Shown here: piece by piece, positions 11,283 through 22,588 of the stretch
Position numbering within the stretch: the first letter of the stretch is position 1
Layout: every line of letters starts with the position of its first letter
Source: Escherichia phage A7_1
Sequence record: OP795442
Strand: one strand, 5' to 3'
Length of the DNA: 64,000 nucleotides
The notes under the pieces: generated by a model
The model's input: only the letters and a program-made list of their open reading frames with translations
Told to the model about the DNA's origin: nothing
The model's database searches: none
Position numbers and translations under genes: made by a program

Positions 11283-13937
11283 CTAATGGCACGCCCCCCA
11301 GTTCATCCCTGTGAGGTATTCTCCAGTTATCATCACTGGTGATTTCATCATCTTAGCTGCTTGTTCGACACAACGAACAACCATCTCTCCTACAGGGCAG
11401 TATGTAATAGTGAAGATACCATTTTCATCAGGATCACACTTAAACTTCCCTTCTTTCACACAATGACCATCTAAGACCATCTTCTTAGCCAAGCAAGCTT
11501 CTACAAATTTTTTCGCGTCAGCTTCGTTGTCAAAGGTCCAGGTCTTCTTGAACTTGTGTGGCACTTCAAGCTGGTATTCATCATGATAGTAAATGATACG
11601 GCGAACACCTTCATCATACCAACCTTTCTTAACCAACTGCCAGTGCAGGAGGATACCTACCAAGTCAAACAGTGCAGCACCACCATTCTGCTGATAAGCA
11701 TTAAGCAATGAGTGTTTGGAACGAGTGTAGATCTTACGTCCATCAAGACCGTAGATGAATCGCTTACCGTTAGCTTCCCAAAACTTCTCTAGTGCTTCTT
11801 TACGACCTTTCAAGCCGATGTTGCTATCCCAGAATGCGTCGATTACTGCCTGGGCCTTCTCAAGAGTGATCCCCAGCATTGATGCAATCTTCGCTGCCTG
11901 TGCCCCGTACATAATTCCGTATGTCACACCTTTACCTTCACCACGAGAAACCTTCTTCCCTGCCGCTTTGGTATACGCTTCTGCGTTTCGGGAGTGAGCA
12001 TCTCCAGATTCCATGATACGAAGATAAGCGCCACCATCGAAATCATACGCGCCCCATGCCGCGATCATACCTTCCAAGTTTGAACCGTCGATACCTACCT
12101 GATATTTACCCTCGGAGGCTCTAAACAGTTCACGCATCTCTTTACCGAGAAGAACTTTCTCATCCGGCTTAGGTACGTTTGCTACGATCGTATGCTTACG
12201 ACGACCTGTGTTAGTTATTCCACTATAACGGGCCGGAAGTTTACCGTCAACCCGTAGACGTGGATGGTTAAGCCATCCGGTATCAACCTTCTCTTCTTTC
12301 AGTGGGTCAAGAACAGATCGTCGGTTACGTAAAGACAGCCATTTAACAATCTGTTTAGCCATTTCACCATCTACTCGCTCAAGGTTAGGGCAAAGACCCT
12401 GCTGATCCTTAAGTTGTGGAGATGTTGGTAATGCACGGGCTTTCTTCCTGAAGAACTTATACATCTTCTCTTTATCTTGCCACTGCTTACCACTGATACC
12501 TAAACTTTTCAGAATCAGATCGCGATATTCAGTCTGGTCAAGATCATCAATATATTGACGAACAATGATATCGACTTCGTTATCGGGACGTTGTTTCTTA
12601 AACTGGTCCTTCGTCGCATCTTTAGTTCGCCACAATGTTGGGACCCAACCAGCATCACGAATAAGGAATTTTTTAACGTCATCCTGATTACCAATACGCA
12701 TCGGGATCATAATGTCCGGCATCTTTTGTTCTTTGATATCCATCAAAGCACGAGCCATATCTTCCGGCGGCAAAGGAACAAGCCCTTGCTGCTTAACGTT
12801 TTGTGCACGGATAAAATCACCCATTTTGGATTCATCTTCTACACCGTGTTCAACACAATACTTGATCGCGGCGGCAGTAAGAGATCCGTCAGCCTTAAAC
12901 GGCTTACTTGGTGCACCTTTAAACTCTAATGCTTCCCAATTGATATTATAACCTAACTTCTCTAACCATTTCCAACCTGTACCGGAAAGAGATCCATCAC
13001 CCTTGAAAGGCTTAGATGGGAATGTCGGTTGTGCTGATTTCGACATTTCTTTCTTCGGTAACTTAGGTTCAACCTCTAACTCAATGTCTGTCATCATCTT
13101 ATCGATACGATCACGGAGCTTGAGTGCTTTTTCTTCATCAAATGAAACACCCTGAATCTCTTGCTCAATCATCAGGTAGTCGGTCAGCATACCTCGACGC
13201 AGGGCATTCTTCCAGTTGATCATTTTAAACTTCTTCTGATCTTTGTCTGTTTCATCCTTAAACATGAAGCGTTTATCATCTGGCATGGATTCACAAGAGA
13301 TCTCTTTCATCAGAGCATCCCACACCATTTCGTTGATAATTACGTCTTCAATAATACGATCGCAATATTTCCAAAGTGGAAGGCCACGCCAATCTTCAAT
13401 CGCCACTTTCTGGTTGGCTACTCGCATACCCCAAGCTTCAAGCCCGTGAGGGCCTACAGGCTTCATTTTACCTGTGACTGGGTTCTTTACCATCTCGGGA
13501 CAACCACGAGGCAGAGGGCGATCTGGATACAATGTACGGGACATTGAAAGTGTATCGAAGATGTTTACTTGTTTACCATTAATCGTACCCATGCAACCAG
13601 GGTCTGCAAACATATCGTAAGTTGTTCCAAGCATCTTCTTAAACAACTGGAGGTCGTAGCCGAAGATGTTGTGGATAGCAATTGCTTTAGGCTCTGTGAC
13701 AAACCACTCGTTTAATTCCTCAATGGTCCGAATCTTAAAGTTTTTACCTTTAGATTGGATAAATTTAACAGCTTGATCGTAACCTTCCCGCTGGGGATCA
13801 AGAAAGATGTTCCAGTTATCTTTTTTATACTCTTTAAACAAGACGCAGTGAATCAGATCAACCTCTGTCAATAGACCATTCGCTTCCGCATCTCCAATAA
13901 ATAAGCCTTTCATTTTTTCTCCTTCTTCAAGCTCCAA
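11283..13937 (-). CDS. DNA polymerase, family A, with 3'-5' exonuclease domain
   Basis: 884 aa; N-terminal FIGDAEANGL (Exo I D-x-E); motif A DGSNLEGM; motif B R-GEGKGVTYGIMYG; motif C YHDEYQLE. Confidence 0.9.
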   Translation of the reverse strand: MELEEGEKMKGLFIGDAEANGLLTEVDLIHCVLFKEYKKDNWNIFLDPQREGYDQAVKFIQSKGKNFKIRTIEELNEWFVTEPKAIAIHNIFGYDLQLFKKMLGTTYDMFADPGCMGTINGKQVNIFDTLSMSRTLYPDRPLPRGCPEMVKNPVTGKMKPVGPHGLEAWGMRVANQKVAIEDWRGLPLWKYCDRIIEDVIINEMVWDALMKEISCESMPDDKRFMFKDETDKDQKKFKMINWKNALRRGMLTDYLMIEQEIQGVSFDEEKALKLRDRIDKMMTDIELEVEPKLPKKEMSKSAQPTFPSKPFKGDGSLSGTGWKWLEKLGYNINWEALEFKGAPSKPFKADGSLTAAAIKYCVEHGVEDESKMGDFIRAQNVKQQGLVPLPPEDMARALMDIKEQKMPDIMIPMRIGNQDDVKKFLIRDAGWVPTLWRTKDATKDQFKKQRPDNEVDIIVRQYIDDLDQTEYRDLILKSLGISGKQWQDKEKMYKFFRKKARALPTSPQLKDQQGLCPNLERVDGEMAKQIVKWLSLRNRRSVLDPLKEEKVDTGWLNHPRLRVDGKLPARYSGITNTGRRKHTIVANVPKPDEKVLLGKEMRELFRASEGKYQVGIDGSNLEGMIAAWGAYDFDGGAYLRIMESGDAHSRNAEAYTKAAGKKVSRGEGKGVTYGIMYGAQAAKIASMLGITLEKAQAVIDAFWDSNIGLKGRKEALEKFWEANGKRFIYGLDGRKIYTRSKHSLLNAYQQNGGAALFDLVGILLHWQLVKKGWYDEGVRRIIYYHDEYQLEVPHKFKKTWTFDNEADAKKFVEACLAKKMVLDGHCVKEGKFKCDPDENGIFTITYCPVGEMVVRCVEQAAKMMKSPVMITGEYLTGMNWGACH

Positions 13938-13986: not shown

Positions 13987-14079
13987 TCAAAAGTGTCGGT
14001 ATCCTTCATCAATAAAATAAAGCATCACTAACAGGGCGAATACCCCACATAAGAAGATCAAGCCCAATAAGGTGGGCAT
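13987..14079 (-). CDS. tiny hydrophobic peptide (about 30 aa, not in track)
   Basis: MPTLLGLIFLCGVFALLVMLYF...; ATG overlaps upstream stop (TGATG); approximate. Confidence 0.3.
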   Translation of the reverse strand: MPTLLGLIFLCGVFALLVMLYFIDEGYRHF

Positions 14080-15090: not shown

Positions 15091-15400
15091 AAATATCTTG
15101 AATTTTTGAACTTAGGTATTCAGGATCGCTACCATCATACCAGACTTCTACGAAAACCTTTTGGGAACCTTTAACGATCTTTGCACCGACTCTTTCAATA
15201 CCTTTAAAGAAAGATTGCAAGATGTAATCATCTAACACGTTTACTCCATAAGCATCGTGGAGGGATTTTTCATTGTGAACATACACAACCATCTTACCAT
15301 CATAGGTGATTTGGATATGGGGATCATCTTCCCAAGTAATAGCCGGAGAATCCGGCTCAAGCTTTGCAATAACACCAATAGTCAATCGGTTGTCACTCAC
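15068..15400 (-). CDS. hypothetical protein
   Basis: Track ORF, 110 aa. Confidence 0.5.
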   Translation of the reverse strand: MSDNRLTIGVIAKLEPDSPAITWEDDPHIQITYDGKMVVYVHNEKSLHDAYGVNVLDDYILQSFFKGIERVGAKIVKGSQKVFVEVWYDGSDPEYLSSKIQDIYGEDYDV

Positions 15401-16614
15401 TCTTTACCCCCTGCGATGCGTAACATTTTGATAGTTTTCTCCAGTTCTTTACGAGGTTTAGCAACTAAACGACGTTCGTGTCGCTTCAGGAAGCCTTCTA
15501 AGAACTCTAGCGGTTTAAAGGATAACACTTCCTGTACTGATTCGTCAACAGCATACTCTTTCTGGACCATACGATAAACCGGATTTTTTACAGTTACAGG
15601 AGTATAACCCTTCGTGATCGCCATCTGAGTAACAACACGTTTCTTACCGTCGGTCCACGAATCGTCAATAGGGAAAGAATCTTTTCCGTATTTTTCAGCG
15701 AACAACTTAACTGCTGTCTTTGTCAGGTCGTCCTGATCTTCTTGTGACCGACTTTGACCCCAATAATAGCCACCAGAGGTCTTAGCACGACGTTCTGAGA
15801 ACAAAGCAAGGTCATCGTACTGCTCAAGAGCTAAACGCGCCAGAAGCTCGATATCGTCGCTTTCTGACAGTAGTCGGTTTGCTTCATACTTAACCTCAAA
15901 AGTATTTGCACTATCACGATCACGGTCAAGAGTAAAGGCTTCCGGCTTAAAATCATAATCGAATTTAAAATTACCTGGAACACGAGTAACGAACAGTCCA
16001 TTTACAAACAGGTTGCAGTCGCCACCTGTGATAGAGCCATCCTCTTCTTCATTTTGGTATTCGTCCGCAGCATTGTATAGCTTAGTATAAGCTTTACCGC
16101 GGTCATTCTGAATAACGACTGTACGTTCAGTAGTTGGTGCATAGTTATCCATAATTTCCGACATAGCGTACTGAGGGATGTTTTCAATGATAACGGTCAC
16201 AGTATTTGAATCACGACCCGATAAGGCGTTTTCATGGATATCCACCGCCAAAATGTTCTGTTCGTATGTGGTATCGTAAACCATATTTGGAATCCAAAGA
16301 TCATTACCATTTTCGATAACGATATCTGCGCCTTCACGAACAAGCACCAGAAGACCCACTTTCAGACCTTCACCAAACTTACCGATCTTACTGTCATCAT
16401 CACGTTTGGTTGAAACACCCATCAAAAGGCCGGAAACAGGAACAACACCGCCACGAGAGATGATTGTGATCTTACCTTGATTACTATCATCATTCCCAAA
16501 ATAAATATTGAAATCTTCTGTATCGATAGCATTTTGCATGAGTTCACGAGCACCTTGCCACCATGACCAGTGGCTGACGTAATTTTCAGTGATGCTCAAT
16601 TTAATCTGTTTCAT
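15397..16614 (-). CDS. GHKL-superfamily (Bergerat fold) ATPase
   Basis: 405 aa; N-box RELMQNAIDT (E-x-x-x-N-x-x-D); G2-like box GKFGEGLKVG. Confidence 0.65.
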   Translation of the reverse strand: MKQIKLSITENYVSHWSWWQGARELMQNAIDTEDFNIYFGNDDSNQGKITIISRGGVVPVSGLLMGVSTKRDDDSKIGKFGEGLKVGLLVLVREGADIVIENGNDLWIPNMVYDTTYEQNILAVDIHENALSGRDSNTVTVIIENIPQYAMSEIMDNYAPTTERTVVIQNDRGKAYTKLYNAADEYQNEEEDGSITGGDCNLFVNGLFVTRVPGNFKFDYDFKPEAFTLDRDRDSANTFEVKYEANRLLSESDDIELLARLALEQYDDLALFSERRAKTSGGYYWGQSRSQEDQDDLTKTAVKLFAEKYGKDSFPIDDSWTDGKKRVVTQMAITKGYTPVTVKNPVYRMVQKEYAVDESVQEVLSFKPLEFLEGFLKRHERRLVAKPRKELEKTIKMLRIAGGKE

Positions 16615-16626
16615 TTATTTGTCCTC

Positions 16627-17343
16627 TTATTTGTTGTATTGATAAATTGCTTCAGCTAAGCCCCGTGGGGTTAGTGACCGGATCATCTTAGTTCTTGCTG
16701 ACTTACCTCCTAACTTATTCTGCTGATCTGACCAACCAGGTGCAACAGGAACCGGAGAGGTTTTTGGAATTATAAACCCATTTCCTGTCCAAAGTCCAGT
16801 CTTTTTCGGATAAGCATCCCTTGGTTTAATGTATTGAGGAAAATAAGGGTTAACATCATTTACCGGAAGGTAACCGCCATATTCCCAAGGGTTAAAATAT
16901 ACAGTAGGTTTTCGCCATTGTCCAGCTAAAACACTTACTGGGTTTTCAATCATATACGGACAATCGAAAACAAATTCAGCAAGCCAAGCTGCAATCTTCG
17001 CAGTTCTTACCGCCTTGACCTGGAAGAAAGGATCTTTTGCTTTCTTCGATGCAAAGTGACGAGAACCACTAACAGCCATATCGGTACATGGAGGATAGGC
17101 AAGGATCAGGTCCGGCGCAGGCAATCCTAAGTTCTCTACATTCTCCATCCATTCAATATCGATAAAGGCGTTAACGTAAGTGATGTTGGGATGAATTTCC
17201 TTTACGCCTTCATAATCCCCGTGATCAGCATCGTCATAGTTGAAGCAGTAGCATTTGTGCCCTGCCTTCGCCCAGGGAAGAACATCAATCCCTGAACCAG
17301 AAAAGAGACTCCAGATAATCTTTTTATTCATCGTAGCATCCAA
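16627..17343 (-). CDS. minimal C5-cytosine methyltransferase-like protein
   Basis: 238 aa; motif I LFSGSG, motif IV AYPPCTDMAVSG (Pro-Cys), motif VI-like MIENPV, C-terminal TPRGLAEA; unusually short with no obvious target-recognition domain. Confidence 0.55.
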   Translation of the reverse strand: MDATMNKKIIWSLFSGSGIDVLPWAKAGHKCYCFNYDDADHGDYEGVKEIHPNITYVNAFIDIEWMENVENLGLPAPDLILAYPPCTDMAVSGSRHFASKKAKDPFFQVKAVRTAKIAAWLAEFVFDCPYMIENPVSVLAGQWRKPTVYFNPWEYGGYLPVNDVNPYFPQYIKPRDAYPKKTGLWTGNGFIIPKTSPVPVAPGWSDQQNKLGGKSARTKMIRSLTPRGLAEAIYQYNK

Positions 17344-17636
17344 ATAGTGGTTAATTTACAAATACACCAGAAAATCCCGATCAGTGTAGCCAGAGTAATA
17401 ACACAAGTCAATACTATAGGTAAGAATATCGTCATAATCACTGCAAAAACTGAAATACCTATGCTTGCAATAAGATCCGGCACGAAATAGTGAAATGGAT
17501 CTCTTGCCTTTTTAATGTTGTCCCATGTTATTACTACGGAGCTAAGGACGAGCCAGAATAAAAAGTACAAAATGCAAGGAAATAAAGTCATGTGTGACTT
17601 AACCATATCAAACCACATGTTGTAGAATTCAATCAT
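17328..17636 (-). CDS. membrane protein
   Basis: 102 aa, three hydrophobic helices. Confidence 0.5.
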   Translation of the reverse strand: MIEFYNMWFDMVKSHMTLFPCILYFLFWLVLSSVVITWDNIKKARDPFHYFVPDLIASIGISVFAVIMTIFLPIVLTCVITLATLIGIFWCICKLTTIWMLR

Positions 17637-17956
17637 TCAGTTTTCCTCGGTACAGATGCAATAACAGCCTTTTCGACGAGACATACAATAAATCTCCCAA
17701 TCCCTGCCAAAAGGAGAGCAAAGACTGTAAAAGGCAACCCATAAATAAGAACCAAAATCATCAATCCAAAACAAGCGGAAAACAGGACTTCTGTGCCTAG
17801 CCACATTTTGGAGTAATTGATATAATTATGCCGCAATTTTAAAAACAGTCCAGCAATAGAGCCTACAGAAAATATACCAATCAACCAAGGTGCAGTTACA
17901 AATGAACGACTGAACCCTTCCCAAAAAACAAAAACATTAATGATTGCTTCGATCAT
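17633..17956 (-). CDS. membrane protein
   Basis: 107 aa, multiple hydrophobic helices. Confidence 0.5.
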   Translation of the reverse strand: MIEAIINVFVFWEGFSRSFVTAPWLIGIFSVGSIAGLFLKLRHNYINYSKMWLGTEVLFSACFGLMILVLIYGLPFTVFALLLAGIGRFIVCLVEKAVIASVPRKTE

Positions 17957-19695: not shown

Positions 19696-19756
19696 TTGTT
19701 TCTCCTTTCTGTTTGGTATGGGAGAAGTATAGGGGAGTTTAGGAGGGGTGTCAATA

Positions 19757-19785
19757 GAAAAACCGCCCGAAGGCGGTTTATTTTG
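19757..19785. terminator. bidirectional terminator
   Basis: aaccgcccgaaggcggtt hairpin flanked by A-run and T-run. Confidence 0.8.
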
Positions 19786-19792
19786 AAAAATA

Positions 19793-20902
19793 TCAGAAAG
19801 GTGCTTCGTCGTCGAAATCTACATCTTCAACTTCCGGTACATCAGGAATGTCACCTGCGGATTCAACGATACTCTGTTGTTCCCACGTAGGTTCCTCTGA
19901 AGGTTGGTCCATTTCTTCCATAACCTTCTTGATCTCTTCCTCTTGCTCACGTAGGAAGTTATCATCCGGCTCAGGAATATCTTCCTCTTTAATATCTGAA
20001 CGAGTGAGATCACTGTTTTGTTCAGACAAAGGTTGAATCTCTGCGGCCTTAGGTTTGAAATCTGGAGAACGATGATCATCTTCTGGATGAGCGGCATACC
20101 ACTCACGAAGAGTTTCATAAGGACTCTCTAGGAAGCCCTCTGGCGGTTCCAGATAATCACCTGTATCAATGTCATAGAACACAGGGAATTTACCAGCACG
20201 ACCGTGTTTACGGTCATCCAGGATAACAAAGTAAGAAGTGTTACGTTGTTTCATCGGAAGCTCTGGATCTTTGTTACGTTCAATACCCCACATATAGTAA
20301 GTGTTTCGCATCATTGCACGGCTACCAGCAAACTGCGCCGACTGGACTTGACCACCAAATTCATGAGGCTTACCAGATTCAGGCTTGTTAAGGTGACAGA
20401 AGCAATAATAAGTAAAGCCAAGCTCTTTTGCCAGTTTGGAGATCTCATCCGAGAATCGTTCCAGTTCCTGGTTAGCTTCAGAAGCACTCATACCTTGCAC
20501 AAGACGAGTGATCGGGTCAATAAAGATATCTTCACAACCTTCTACGATCACTGCGTGACGGATAGCACCTTTCAGTTCATCCCATACTGCACGACCATAG
20601 TTGTTATAATAGATAACACTATCACCAACTTCATCAGTAGCTTTGATCAGTTCTTCTTGCTTAAAGTAGCCACGTTGACCTTCAAATACTTCATTACCCC
20701 AAATGTCACGGAAAGTTCCATCTTCTTGAGGAATCATTACCTTTTCTGCGTTAACAAAGTCTTTATGATAACGCTTACCTGCGATCTTCTTACAAGTGAT
20801 CTCGTTCTCTTCTTCAAACTTAAACACCGCAGCTTTTGACTTCTCAATACCCGTGATGTGTTCAACCATTTGGTTAAGAAGTTCAGACTTGCCCATTTTC
20901 AC
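19793..20902 (-). CDS. replicative helicase domain (T7 gp4-like), 3' exon of split primase-helicase
   Basis: Begins (V/M)KMGKSELL, the second half of a Walker A box; RecA-like core; ends with acidic tail DVDFDDEAPF. Confidence 0.8.
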   Translation of the reverse strand: MKMGKSELLNQMVEHITGIEKSKAAVFKFEEENEITCKKIAGKRYHKDFVNAEKVMIPQEDGTFRDIWGNEVFEGQRGYFKQEELIKATDEVGDSVIYYNNYGRAVWDELKGAIRHAVIVEGCEDIFIDPITRLVQGMSASEANQELERFSDEISKLAKELGFTYYCFCHLNKPESGKPHEFGGQVQSAQFAGSRAMMRNTYYMWGIERNKDPELPMKQRNTSYFVILDDRKHGRAGKFPVFYDIDTGDYLEPPEGFLESPYETLREWYAAHPEDDHRSPDFKPKAAEIQPLSEQNSDLTRSDIKEEDIPEPDDNFLREQEEEIKKVMEEMDQPSEEPTWEQQSIVESAGDIPDVPEVEDVDFDDEAPF

Positions 20903-21643
20903 CGTTATGTTCGACAGGGTTCGCTACTCCCTGCCCGTTCTCTTACGAACTGCTACATGTCCCCATGCAGACCAGACTATATCTTCAACCTGTTTCCAGG
21001 TGCTATGCACTTCGGACCGCTTGGTCCTACTCTACTCGATTCAAGAGTCTAGCTCTTGTCTTTCGATAGTCGTTGCTCCTTCCTCTCAACCGCTTTGTAA
21101 TTTGTCTTACGGTATCTCTGTGTATCCCAAAATGCTCTGCAATTTCTTTTTGTTGAAGCGTGGTATTAATAACCATTTCGTAAACCTGCTTCTCAAAATC
21201 ATCAGCATATCTATTTGGATTTCTTCTACCGTTGGCCCAACCATGATCGACATTTTCTTTCGTGGTTGTCCATTCCAAATTAACATCGTTGTTGTTTTGC
21301 CTGTCGCTATCTTTATGATTAACAACAGGAAGGTTATGAGGGTTATCAACGTAGTGTTCAGCCACCAATTGGTGAATAAATCTACGTGTAACCTTACCAT
21401 CTTTACTTAACGAAACTCTAAGATACCCTGAACTATTGGTATCCGGTTTGAGTTTTTTAAGCTTCCGGTAAACATCTCCCCTTCGGGTAATGATGTAATT
21501 TTCAAAACCTTTTATTCTTTTCATTTCCCCCTCCTTGCAATAAACAAAGAGGTTGAGAGGCTTGGATCAGGATTACGTGTTCTACGCTTCCCCTGAGTTC
21601 ACATAGTATTTAGTCGAGGCATCTCTGCCAAGGCTGGCTAGAC
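20903..21643 (-). mobile_element. intervening sequence in primase-helicase gene, candidate group I intron with HNH homing endonuclease ORF
   Basis: About 740 nt between primase stop and helicase start; contains an independent ORF with its own SD; approximate boundaries. Confidence 0.6.
21027..21524 (-). CDS. HNH-family homing endonuclease (intron-encoded candidate)
   Basis: 165 aa; N-terminal GFENYIITRRGDVY (NUMOD4-like), HNH-type core, basic C-terminal DNA-binding tail; AAGGAGGGGG SD. Confidence 0.8.
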   Translation of the reverse strand: MKRIKGFENYIITRRGDVYRKLKKLKPDTNSSGYLRVSLSKDGKVTRRFIHQLVAEHYVDNPHNLPVVNHKDSDRQNNNDVNLEWTTTKENVDHGWANGRRNPNRYADDFEKQVYEMVINTTLQQKEIAEHFGIHRDTVRQITKRLRGRSNDYRKTRARLLNRVE

Positions 21644-22588
21644 TTAATGTTTACCAGCACCGATGAAGTAACCTTCACCTGGACGACGACCCAAGGTAAG
21701 CTTGGTCATGGTGGGCCAAGGGAACTTCTTGCCGAGTTTAGGGATCTCATGTGCCTTTTCGCGGAACTGTGAATAAGTCGAGAAACCATCCGGCACATAT
21801 TCCTTTGGCTTCATTGCAGCCCAAAACAACTGATCAGAAAGTCCTTTGTTATACATGTCGCAAGGGTCCATATCTTCTGGAATGTCCACGACCTTCATTT
21901 GTGGAATTACAGAGTATACCGCTGCAACTGCATCTTTACCTTTCATGATCCCTTTGGCCTTCTCTGCTTCTGTCGCACGGTCAGCATCGAAAGCTACGAT
22001 AATCTCTTCAAACTTACTCAGAAGCTTATAGTTATTCTTCTGTGATAAGTTTTGCACGGCATTGGATGTACCGTTAGAGATAGATACAACTGTGAAGTTT
22101 GGTTTACGAGTGGAACCATCCTTCGGTTTGTACTTCTCTGTCAATACCTGCCACAAGATTGCAGCATCGTATTCACCTTCAGTGATAAAGATCATACGTT
22201 TGGAAGACTTGTTTGCACCTTCCAGACCAAACATATCACAGGCTACAGATTGGAAACCGATAGTTGTAAAGTGCCCTTTCTGTTGCTTAGGGATCGTAAG
22301 ATCACGCTTTTTAAAACCTACAACCTTACCTTCCAATGTGTACGGAAAATAATGTGCTTCTGGAGTCATACCGTCTTTAGCTGACAACTTGGTACGAATA
22401 CCAAATCGTTTAGCTGTCTTTTCGTCGATACCACGCTCAGGGATACTTTTACACGGGTAAGTCAATACATCTTCAACTGTTTCTTCCACACGAGACACAC
22501 CACCACCATAATTACGTGCTACTGAAGCTTTAGGATTTTTATGTCCGAACTTATAACCGCCAAACAAACTTTCGCCAATAGTGCTCAT
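21644..22588 (-). CDS. DNA primase (TOPRIM) domain, 5' exon of split primase-helicase
   Basis: 314 aa; TOPRIM motifs IFITEGEYDA and VAFDADRA; ends GEGYFIGAGKH-stop, the first half of a Walker A box. Confidence 0.8.
   Translation of the reverse strand: MSTIGESLFGGYKFGHKNPKASVARNYGGGVSRVEETVEDVLTYPCKSIPERGIDEKTAKRFGIRTKLSAKDGMTPEAHYFPYTLEGKVVGFKKRDLTIPKQQKGHFTTIGFQSVACDMFGLEGANKSSKRMIFITEGEYDAAILWQVLTEKYKPKDGSTRKPNFTVVSISNGTSNAVQNLSQKNNYKLLSKFEEIIVAFDADRATEAEKAKGIMKGKDAVAAVYSVIPQMKVVDIPEDMDPCDMYNKGLSDQLFWAAMKPKEYVPDGFSTYSQFREKAHEIPKLGKKFPWPTMTKLTLGRRPGEGYFIGAGKH

Follow-up and report, generated by a model that had tools for sequence, protein, structure and literature searches.

A phage Dcm-type cytosine methyltransferase and a GHKL-fold protein as probably independent neighbours in the early region of Escherichia phage A7_1

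Several described systems resemble the gene pair analysed here or one of its members. For the methylase, there is the Dcm of K42/KarlJaspers, a protein of 236 aa producing 5mC at CCWGG according to LC-MS, which was active by itself after plasmid expression, was inactivated for control purposes by mutation of C82, E128, K175 and K176, had its structure superposed on DNMT3A by its authors, and acts as the trigger of the retron Ec86/Eco1 (bioRxiv 10.1101/2023.08.16.553469). For the combination of a GHKL gene with a cytosine methylase, the MORC/paraMORC genes adjoin cytosine methylases in restriction-modification operons, in neighbourhoods with a SF-II helicase, endonuclease and/or methylase (PMC2292703). 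Finally, the phage rIIA proteins, described as counter-defence factors, have a GHKL domain at the N terminus followed by a C-terminal domain that varies (PMC7824862).

The window analysed was a stretch of 64,000 nucleotides from Escherichia phage A7_1 (OP795442), a 145-kb myovirus of the genus Septuagintavirus (Vequintavirinae, rV5-like E. coli phages). The two ORFs reported in a preliminary description were found as claimed, their products being identical to A7_1 gp164 and gp165, and the features of the locus are collected in Table 1. Both genes lie on the same strand in one transcription unit, separated by 12 nt, and their region is flanked by a split primase/helicase on one side and the DNA polymerase on the other, in what is probably the variable early/middle region of this Septuagintavirus. 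The unit, made up of small genes, is headed by a near-consensus sigma70-like promoter matching 11 of 12 consensus positions; a comparable early promoter has been reported for Certrevirus (PMC7344957). The two ORFs just upstream that had been described as membrane proteins were also present and are strongly hydrophobic, with Kyte-Doolittle maxima over 19 residues of 2.66 (102-aa protein) and 2.59 (107-aa protein), at least two predicted transmembrane stretches each, and stop and start codons sharing 4 nt with the adjoining ORFs. Searches of Pfam and PHROG returned no family match for the 102-aa protein, which among the loci compared was present in Septuagintavirus only, while the 107-aa protein had a weak homologue at one CR9-like locus. 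Overall, the gene pair probably represents two functionally independent neighbours, namely an orphan phage Dcm and an essentially phage-restricted GHL/MORC-like nucleotide-dependent protein.

Table 1. Features of the locus, ordered by position in the window
Feature	Coordinates	Strand	Basis or remark
Hairpin resembling a terminator, at the end of the unit and upstream of the DNA polymerase gene	14062..14077	(-)	Consensus scan
405-aa protein, PHROG 6077, GHKL (Bergerat), beta-rich second and helical C-terminal domains	15397..16614	(-)	
R231-D232-R233, end of second domain, candidate phosphate-sensing basic residues	15916..15924	(-)	Family conservation
GHKL G2 box, GKFGEGLK (residues 78-85), MORC-like GxxGxGxK	16360..16383	(-)	G78, G81, E82, G83 and K85 invariant
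Degenerate G1 box, SRGGV replacing DxGxG	16444..16458	(-)	Asp position is Ser53
GHKL N box, RELMQNAIDT (residues 23-32)	16519..16548	(-)	E24, Q27, N28 and D31 invariant
Orphan C5-cytosine DNA methyltransferase of the phage Dcm type, most likely read from ATG 17331 (234 aa)	16627..17331	(-)	PHROG 757, KarlJaspers identity, Foldseek, ATGA overlap
Methylase ORF read from TTG 17343, 238 aa	16627..17343	(-)	
Methylase motif VI, ENP (residues 133-135)	16939..16947	(-)	E133-N134-P135 invariant in 28 homologues
Methylase motif IV, PPC (residues 84-86), catalytic Cys86 (Cys82 in 234-aa numbering)	17086..17094	(-)	P84-P85-C86 invariant in 28 homologues
Methylase motif I, LFSGSG (residues 13-18), AdoMet binding	17290..17307	(-)	F14, G16, S17 and G18 nearly invariant in 28 homologues
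Predicted membrane protein of 102 aa, with translational coupling to the methylase	17328..17636	(-)	Hydropathy
107-aa predicted membrane protein	17633..17956	(-)	Hydropathy; PHROG 15955 (unknown function)
Intrinsic terminator (19779-19760), then TTGACA-17-TATACT promoter (19754-19726)	19726..19779	(-)	Consensus scan

To begin with the methylase, the 238-aa ORF exists as described, but its true start is most likely the ATG at 17331, giving 234 aa, because this codon overlaps the stop of the upstream ORF (ATGA) and yields the length of the database entries. The motifs LFSGSG, PPC and ENP occur in the order reported, and RELMQNAIDT and GKFGEGLK are likewise present in the neighbouring protein; in both cases these are not chance matches, since homologues show little or no variation at these residues. 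The 238-aa protein falls, with nothing unusual about it, into a phage family of DNA cytosine methylases that is already known and has an experimentally characterised member. It matched PHROG 757 ‘DNA methyltransferase’ with an E-value of 5e−78 and showed 55% identity to KarlJaspers Dcm over 234/236 aa by BLASTP (E-value of 1e−87). Moreover, C82, E128 and K175-K176 of K42/KarlJaspers Dcm align with identical residues C82, E129 and K176-K177, which, together with FxGSG, vary little or not at all among 28 homologues. Between motifs VIII and IX lies a compact stretch that the family strongly conserves, with 31 of 51 residues the same as in KarlJaspers. The Pfam model DNA_methylase (PF00145) reached 20.7 bits, below its gathering cut-off of 22 bits, and covered only motifs I-IV (residues 11-109), while certain homologues have a precomputed match to it. 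The protein had already been annotated as a cytosine methylase in a paper on this phage group (PMC11370258).

The proposed structure search pointed the same way. Using an AF2 model with a pLDDT of 89.7, the top 36 Foldseek matches were chains of DNMT3A/B/C or MET1, the best being the catalytic domains of DNMT3A/3B (E-value of 1.3e−7), which agrees with the earlier claim of a methyltransferase of the C5-cytosine type whose target-recognition region is reduced. Searching PDB sequences with the single sequence gave nothing useful, and with the profile only a weak match to M.HaeIII. The methylase shares with DNMT3A, DNMT3B and the bacterial C5-methyltransferases (M.HhaI/M.HaeIII type) the motif order I, IV, VI and a C-terminal IX/X-like segment, and with DNMT3A/B a very short target-recognition region. 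However, sequence similarity to all of them is marginal, TM-scores are about 0.5, and the methylase is around 90 residues shorter than the bacterial type II enzymes. It resembles K42/KarlJaspers Dcm in length class (234 vs. 236 aa), catalytic Cys, Glu of ENx, KK pair and DNMT3-like predicted fold, although 45% of residues differ and that enzyme comes from a 51-kb siphovirus of the Drexlerviridae. The ‘minimal’ methylase is of a known, active enzyme type.

The specificity of the methylase is most probably CCWGG, as suggested by its 55% identity to the characterised enzyme. Site statistics were the same in the window and in KarlJaspers, CCWGG not being depleted and CCSGG being almost absent, a pattern that the host Dcm could also produce. 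With SAM as methyl donor and a compact target-recognition region like that of DNMT3, the enzyme would act as a C5-cytosine DNA methyltransferase, methylating replicating phage DNA at CCWGG and so protecting it from EcoRII- and CCNGG-type restriction, with the possible triggering of retron Eco1/Ec86 as a side effect. For Septuagintaviruses, this predicts host-independent 5mC at CCWGG and phages that resist restriction of the EcoRII type but are probably sensitive to that retron.

The 405-aa protein has a GHKL fold, as previously described, with an invariant N box (ExxxNxxD), an invariant G2 box (GxxGxG) and a Bergerat fold. The preliminary description had spoken of a clear N box and G box, and both are present. 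The G1 box DxGxG is not canonical, its adenine-contacting Asp being replaced by Ser53. Of 194 aligned family members, 191 have S, N or T at this position and two have D, and in an alignment of homologues the distant members P0058 (DTGPG) and P0059 (DYGKG) have the Asp. In contrast to the earlier statement that no partner domain was recognisable, the model adds to the GHKL domain a second domain and, C-terminally, a helical one, and about 200-217 residues align with two-domain GHL modules. Where the second domain ends, R231 was found in all 194 aligned members, and D232 and R233 in 193 each; R231/R233 are candidates for phosphate sensing, a role proposed from the basic finger that GHL proteins carry in their transducer domain (PMC2292703). 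K70 is also invariant, across very divergent members. The family combines an intact catalytic core with a systematically altered contact to the nucleotide base.

No Pfam domain was detected in the 405-aa protein, with no HATPase_c or HATPase_c_3 match at E≤1, while the distant family members P0058, P0185, P0215 and P0260 exceeded the cut-offs of one or the other model. PF25856 was precomputed for a few homologues and was absent when three of them were rescanned against Pfam. Regarding PDB sequences, a single-sequence search yielded nothing useful, and the best match of the family profile was MORC2 over the G2 box region, which was weak (E-value of 0.06). Neither a weak PADLOC match to TmtA (Tiamat) of 17 bits nor an NCBIfam match to sacsin below threshold was taken as a sign of membership. 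Unlike the sacsin repeat region and Hsp90-type GHKL proteins, the protein scored below the family cut-offs, and nothing points to a chaperone function. One phage record labels a homologue ‘chaperon htpG’, an unverified annotation.

The family is very large and almost exclusively viral, with 6,791 cluster representatives, and a scan of genome contigs found 23 loci, mostly in MAGs. To survey its neighbourhood, the ORFs of 54-64 loci were clustered and 150 cluster representatives were scanned against Pfam. No recurrent neighbour emerged from these loci; DNA ligase, helicases, RNR, dUTPase and Ku were found across them, and DNA methylases of three unrelated classes appeared in three of the 150 clusters. 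A methylase-sized ORF of 205 aa directly upstream of the GHKL gene in Klebsiella phage KP13-16 turned out to be DUF6939. For the 405-aa protein, the likeliest mode of action would be nucleotide-driven dimerisation (clamping) on a DNA or protein client during replication or repair, without depending on the methylase. Any ATPase activity is inferred, as is the clamp mechanism, and since the adenine-binding Asp is missing, ATP-driven clamping is uncertain.

Two other roles for the 405-aa protein were weighed. As an rIIA-like factor, it would counteract abortive-infection systems, perhaps with the two upstream membrane proteins. Outside its own family, rIIA proteins were its best viral structural matches (Foldseek E-values from 1e−8 to 1e−6), one database record calls a homologue ‘RIIA lysis inhibitor’, and its gene belongs to a sigma70-driven early/middle unit. 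Moreover, T4 rIIA is likewise phage-specific, with GHKL as its N-terminal domain and variability in its C-terminal part. However, TM-scores were low (0.35-0.45), and the profile alignment with T4 rIIA covered only the GHKL motifs (90 columns, hhalign probability of 8.6%). T4 rIIA matched seven families in PHROG that bear the label RIIA or RIIB, PHROG 612 first, whereas PHROG 6077 is distinct from all rIIA families. Family membership, prompted by the database name, was rejected by hhalign and PHROGs. In addition, the protein is half as long as T4 rIIA, which has a canonical DxGxG; the membrane ORFs do not accompany the GHKL gene in other phages, and its common neighbours are the DNA-metabolism genes mentioned above. 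A role of this kind is unlikely.

The loss of the adenine-binding Asp, shared by nearly the whole family, and the failure of the Pfam HATPase_c models would also agree with a pseudo-enzyme, that is, a non-catalytic scaffold with a GHKL fold. Nevertheless, the replacement is itself conserved in kind, favouring small polar residues, and E24 (the general base), N28 (which binds Mg), D31, the entire G2 box, K70 and R231/R233 are invariant in very divergent members, which is the pattern expected of a working active site. We thus regard a purely structural role as doubtful, to a degree similar to that of the rIIA-like one, and favour a nucleotide-dependent protein.

A functional two-gene module, in which the GHKL protein assists, regulates or reads the mark of the adjacent methylase, either for modification or anti-defence or in the manner of MORC/paraMORC with Dcm, is less probable still. 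The 12-nt spacing in one operon and the adjacency in two genera, Septuagintavirus and CR9-like Certrevirus, speak for it and against independence, leaving some probability of a local functional link such as action of the GHKL protein on methylated DNA; the MORC/paraMORC precedent also speaks for the module. Nonetheless, adjacency in a variable early region of a phage does not by itself show a system, and the distribution of the two genes did not bear out the earlier suggestion of a new and meaningful pairing. Phage records containing the methylase numbered 1,521, against 100 with the GHKL gene, and more than 1,400 have the former without the latter. The methylase lay near the GHKL gene at 5 of 54 loci by tblastn, and within 5 kb at 6 of 61 loci using the family HMM, all paired loci belonging to a single clade, Septuagintavirus or CR9-like Certrevirus. 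Furthermore, the GHKL gene stays intact in close relatives where the methylase is lost. In PcCB7V the methylase is reduced to a remnant of 27 aa, in phiTE and 4MG it was not found near the GHKL gene, and phiTE, DU_PP_I and DU_PP_IV, which according to the CB7 paper have no cytosine methylase at all, all carry the GHKL gene. GAP31 and pEp_SNUABM_01 have both genes, about 100 kb apart. The activity of the K42 enzyme on its own likewise argues against a required partner.

The preliminary description knew of no such pairing; GHKL genes with Dcm are in fact known from the MORC/paraMORC operons (PMC2292703), but the locus differs from these. The 405-aa protein lacks the G1-box Asp and the S5 motif, its family is viral whereas theirs are cellular, and no helicase or endonuclease partner accompanies it as in paraMORC systems, that neighbourhood not being conserved in the 54-64 loci, nor is adjacency to the methylase. 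By inspection, the MORC-specific motif GhXhhpXXRhl (PMC2292703) was not found, the segment G206-LFVTRVPGNF having no Arg at the required position. The least probable reading, rather improbable in our view, is that PHROG 6077 comprises a hitherto unrecognised class of phage-specific MORC-like nucleotide-dependent clamps with an altered base pocket (Ser/Asn/Thr in place of the Asp), which in Septuagintavirus/Certrevirus act on or read the 5mC of the adjacent Dcm; if true, it would be a viral analogue of the link between MORC and DNA methylation.

The pairing of the two probably independent neighbours is lineage synteny. For the pair, the result is mostly a clean-up. When the window was compared with the Certrevirus loci, identity was 79-86% for the DNA polymerase, 81-90% for the helicase and 69-75% for the GHKL protein, and only 45-46% for the methylase, which is nearer to siphovirus copies (62% identity), as would fit a swapped cassette.

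Both ORFs were located in a sequence check where the preliminary description had placed them, with all quoted motifs present and in the order given, and belong, together with the ORFs upstream, to one minus-strand unit flanked by the DNA polymerase gene and, on the other side, by a primase/helicase gene that is itself interrupted by an HNH endonuclease ORF. Near the methylase start the sequence reads CGATGAATAAA: the ATG at 17331 shares bases with the TGA that ends the upstream ORF, and the true product would most likely be 234 aa long, since the database entries of the identical protein have that length. The gene of the 405-aa protein (ATPase) starts 12 nt past the methylase stop, behind a good ribosome-binding site (AAGAGGA). 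The two hydrophobic upstream ORFs, each of which overlaps its neighbours by 4 nt, were confined to the window's clade in the locus comparison. The two proteins matched gp164 and gp165 from Escherichia phage A7_1 at 100% identity, and the window DNA was 97.9% identical to phage A5-4; A7_1 and A5-4 belong to the Vequintavirinae, proposed genus Septuagintavirus (PMC11370258).

Features of the unit and its surroundings in the window
Feature	Coordinates	Strand	Remarks
CCSGG sites	8734, 53301, 61633		
DNA polymerase gene	11283-13937		flanks unit on one side
Terminator-like hairpin	14077-14062	-	unit end
ATPase ORF	15397-16614	-	405 aa
Methylase ORF	16627-17343	-	238 aa from TTG
Upstream ORF	17328-17636	-	strongly hydrophobic
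Upstream ORF	17633-17956	-	strongly hydrophobic
Hairpin terminator, then TTGACA-17-TATACT promoter	19779-19726	-	unit start
Primase/helicase, C-terminal helicase part	19793-20902	-	369 aa
HNH-type endonuclease ORF	21027-21524	-	165 aa, between primase/helicase parts
Primase/helicase, N-terminal part	21644-22588	-	314 aa

The earlier reading of the short protein as a cytosine methylase was supported. It matched PHROG 757 'DNA methyltransferase' (E 5e-78), while the Pfam DNA_methylase score (20.7 bits) fell just under the 22-bit threshold and covered motifs I-IV only. Among 28 homologues, FxGSG, PPC, ENP and WRK were invariant or nearly so, as was the C-terminal block KLGGKS..TK.IRSLTPRG. The confident AlphaFold model (pLDDT 89.7) was closest to the DNMT3A/3B catalytic domains among solved structures (E about 1e-7), with MET1, DNMT1 and a DNA methylase from a prophage ranking next. 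A 'minimal' C5-methyltransferase thus has precedent, as DNMT3 enzymes, too, methylate C5 and have a very short target-recognition region. Moreover, a study of retron Ec86 described a 711-bp dcm gene in K42, a KarlJaspers-like Drexlerviridae phage, showed by LC-MS that its product converts the CCWGG site in the msDNA of the retron to the 5mC form, used a C82A, E128A, K175A, K176A mutant as inactive control, and superposed the predicted structure on DNMT3A (bioRxiv 10.1101/2023.08.16.553469). Compared with the KarlJaspers gene annotated 'Dcm-like C5 cytosine methyltransferase' (L076:38088-38798), the methylase showed 55% identity over its full length (E 1e-87), and all four residues mutated in the K42 control were aligned and identical. 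By this homology, together with the family matches and the DNMT3-like fold, the methylase is assigned to the known, experimentally validated phage Dcm family, as a new member of a characterised group.

Residues about 146-210, which replace the target-recognition domain, were among the best-conserved parts of the family in the 28 homologues (31 of 51 residues shared with KarlJaspers), which suggests that specificity is probably conserved. Compared with second-order Markov simulations, CCWGG was not depleted in the window (93 observed vs. 82±8 expected), while CCSGG was almost absent (3 vs. 40±7). KarlJaspers behaved likewise (CCWGG 123 vs. 70 expected; CCSGG 2 vs. 21), and the Certrevirus relatives (phiTE, CR9-like) presented the reverse pattern. 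These statistics agree with a conserved specificity, and the host's own Dcm might add to such a pattern; they also suggest CCSGG- or CCNGG-type restriction as a strong counter-selection in E. coli phages with methylated CCWGG.

The other protein had no Pfam match, sub-threshold matches to the sacsin ATP-binding domain and TmtA, and a match to PHROG 6077 'unknown function' (E 9e-126). Its assignment to the GHKL fold was upheld by a GHKL domain (about 1-145), which is followed by a second, beta-rich domain (about 160-235) and, at the C-terminus, by a helical one (238-405); the best PDB sequence match of the family profile was MORC2, via the layout 'LLxGxSxK...IGxFGxGxK'. Among 194 diverse members, E24, N28, D31, K70, G78, G81-E82-G83, K85, R93, W107, Y220 and R231-D232-R233 were essentially invariant. 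The claim of clear Bergerat motifs held for two of the three boxes and failed for the third, G1, whose Asp makes the adenine contact in every classical GHKL ATPase: this position was Ser in 106 members, Asn in 68, Thr in 17 and Asp in only 2, a systematic alteration of the contact with the nucleotide base. It belongs to a large phage family that is uncharacterised, counting 6,791 cluster representatives (50% identity) at E≤1e-3 and 1,830 at ≤1e-30. A search of 185,579 species, with one genome for each, gave just 23 loci, most of them on MAG contigs; this makes the family an essentially viral one. It includes proteins of about 1,100 aa (P0185-P0189, P0194, P0198, P0208) with three tandem GHKL modules, an arrangement resembling sacsin. 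The distant members P0055, P0058 and P0059 carried a C-terminal HExxH (zincin/SprT-like) motif, and P0058 and P0059 kept the canonical DxGxG box.

The proposal that both genes form a novel two-gene module is not supported: they are adjacent in one clade, the ATPase is kept without the methylase, and they differ in evolutionary rate. By tblastn, 1,521 phage records contained the methylase, among them T1-like, Dhillonvirus, Webervirus, rV5-like and Phapecoctavirus phages, and 100 contained the ATPase, from Vequintavirinae subgroups as well as Vibrio, Pseudomonas and other phages; the methylase lay within 4 kb in 5 of the 54 ATPase loci examined. The family HMM placed it within 5 kb in 6 of 61 loci, in which no more distant C5-methylase was seen near the ATPase. 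All methylase-positive loci were Septuagintavirus or CR9-like Certrevirus, and in CR9 a 177-bp ORF sits between both genes. The cytosine methylase is reported to be wholly absent from phiTE, DU_PP_I and DU_PP_IV (PMC7344957), all three of which have the ATPase by tblastn; in phiTE it was seen at the syntenic position, with no methylase there. In GAP31 and pEp_SNUABM_01 both genes were about 100 kb apart, and in PcCB7V the last 27 methylase codons alone remain, as a deletion scar directly upstream of the intact ATPase gene. The 'N-type ATP pyrophosphatase' ORF (L003, 3316-3504) overlapping this 27-aa piece of the Dcm C-terminus (LGGKSEKTKQLRSLTPEGFARAVYQHN) is probably misannotated. Furthermore, identities between the window and Certrevirus were 79-86% for the DNA polymerase, 81-90% for the helicase and 69-75% for the ATPase, but only 45-46% for the methylase, for which copies from small siphoviruses reached 62%. 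These values point to vertical inheritance of the ATPase with the replication module and to a methylase behaving as an exchangeable cassette.

In its architecture, the ATPase is similar to MORC, MutL and Hsp90, yet it belongs to none of those families; from this likeness, it may work as a nucleotide-dependent dimerising clamp, and our best guess, held with low confidence, is that it clamps DNA or a client in replication or repair. The main alternative, an rIIA-like counter-defence role, draws on rIIA proteins being its nearest non-family matches among viral structure models; however, their TM-scores were low, a T4 rIIA profile comparison aligned the GHKL motifs alone (probability 8.6%), and the PHROG families differ. 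A GHKL-plus-Dcm pairing is not unprecedented, as such neighbourhoods were described in MORC/paraMORC restriction-modification operons (PMC2292703), but the present locus departs from what defines them: it has neither a helicase or endonuclease partner nor a conserved neighbourhood, and its ATPase lacks the MORC S5 motif and has an altered G1 box.

In other phages, the ATPase neighbours included DNA ligase, helicases, HNH endonucleases, RNR, dUTPase and Ku, and three unrelated methylase classes accounted for 3 of 150 neighbour clusters. DNA ligase was the commonest recurring annotated neighbour in unrelated phages (also 3 of 150: Pseudomonas phage Ab18, Acinetobacter phage ABPH49 and one further locus), a signal too weak to count as an association. 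In Klebsiella phage KP13-16 (L104, 2370-2987), a DUF6939 protein with a weak NADAR-like match occupies the methylase's place, 13 nt upstream of the ATPase homologue, and is another lineage-specific neighbour. The primase/helicase, split over 19793-22588, is a single 2,076-bp gene in Certrevirus PcCB7V, and the split probably reflects insertion of an intron or homing endonuclease, as was reported for CB7. Finally, the DNA polymerase, a single 884-aa ORF in the window, is divided between two CDSs in the A5-4 annotation (L002, 579-2938), either through a sequencing or annotation difference or through a real frameshift in A5-4.
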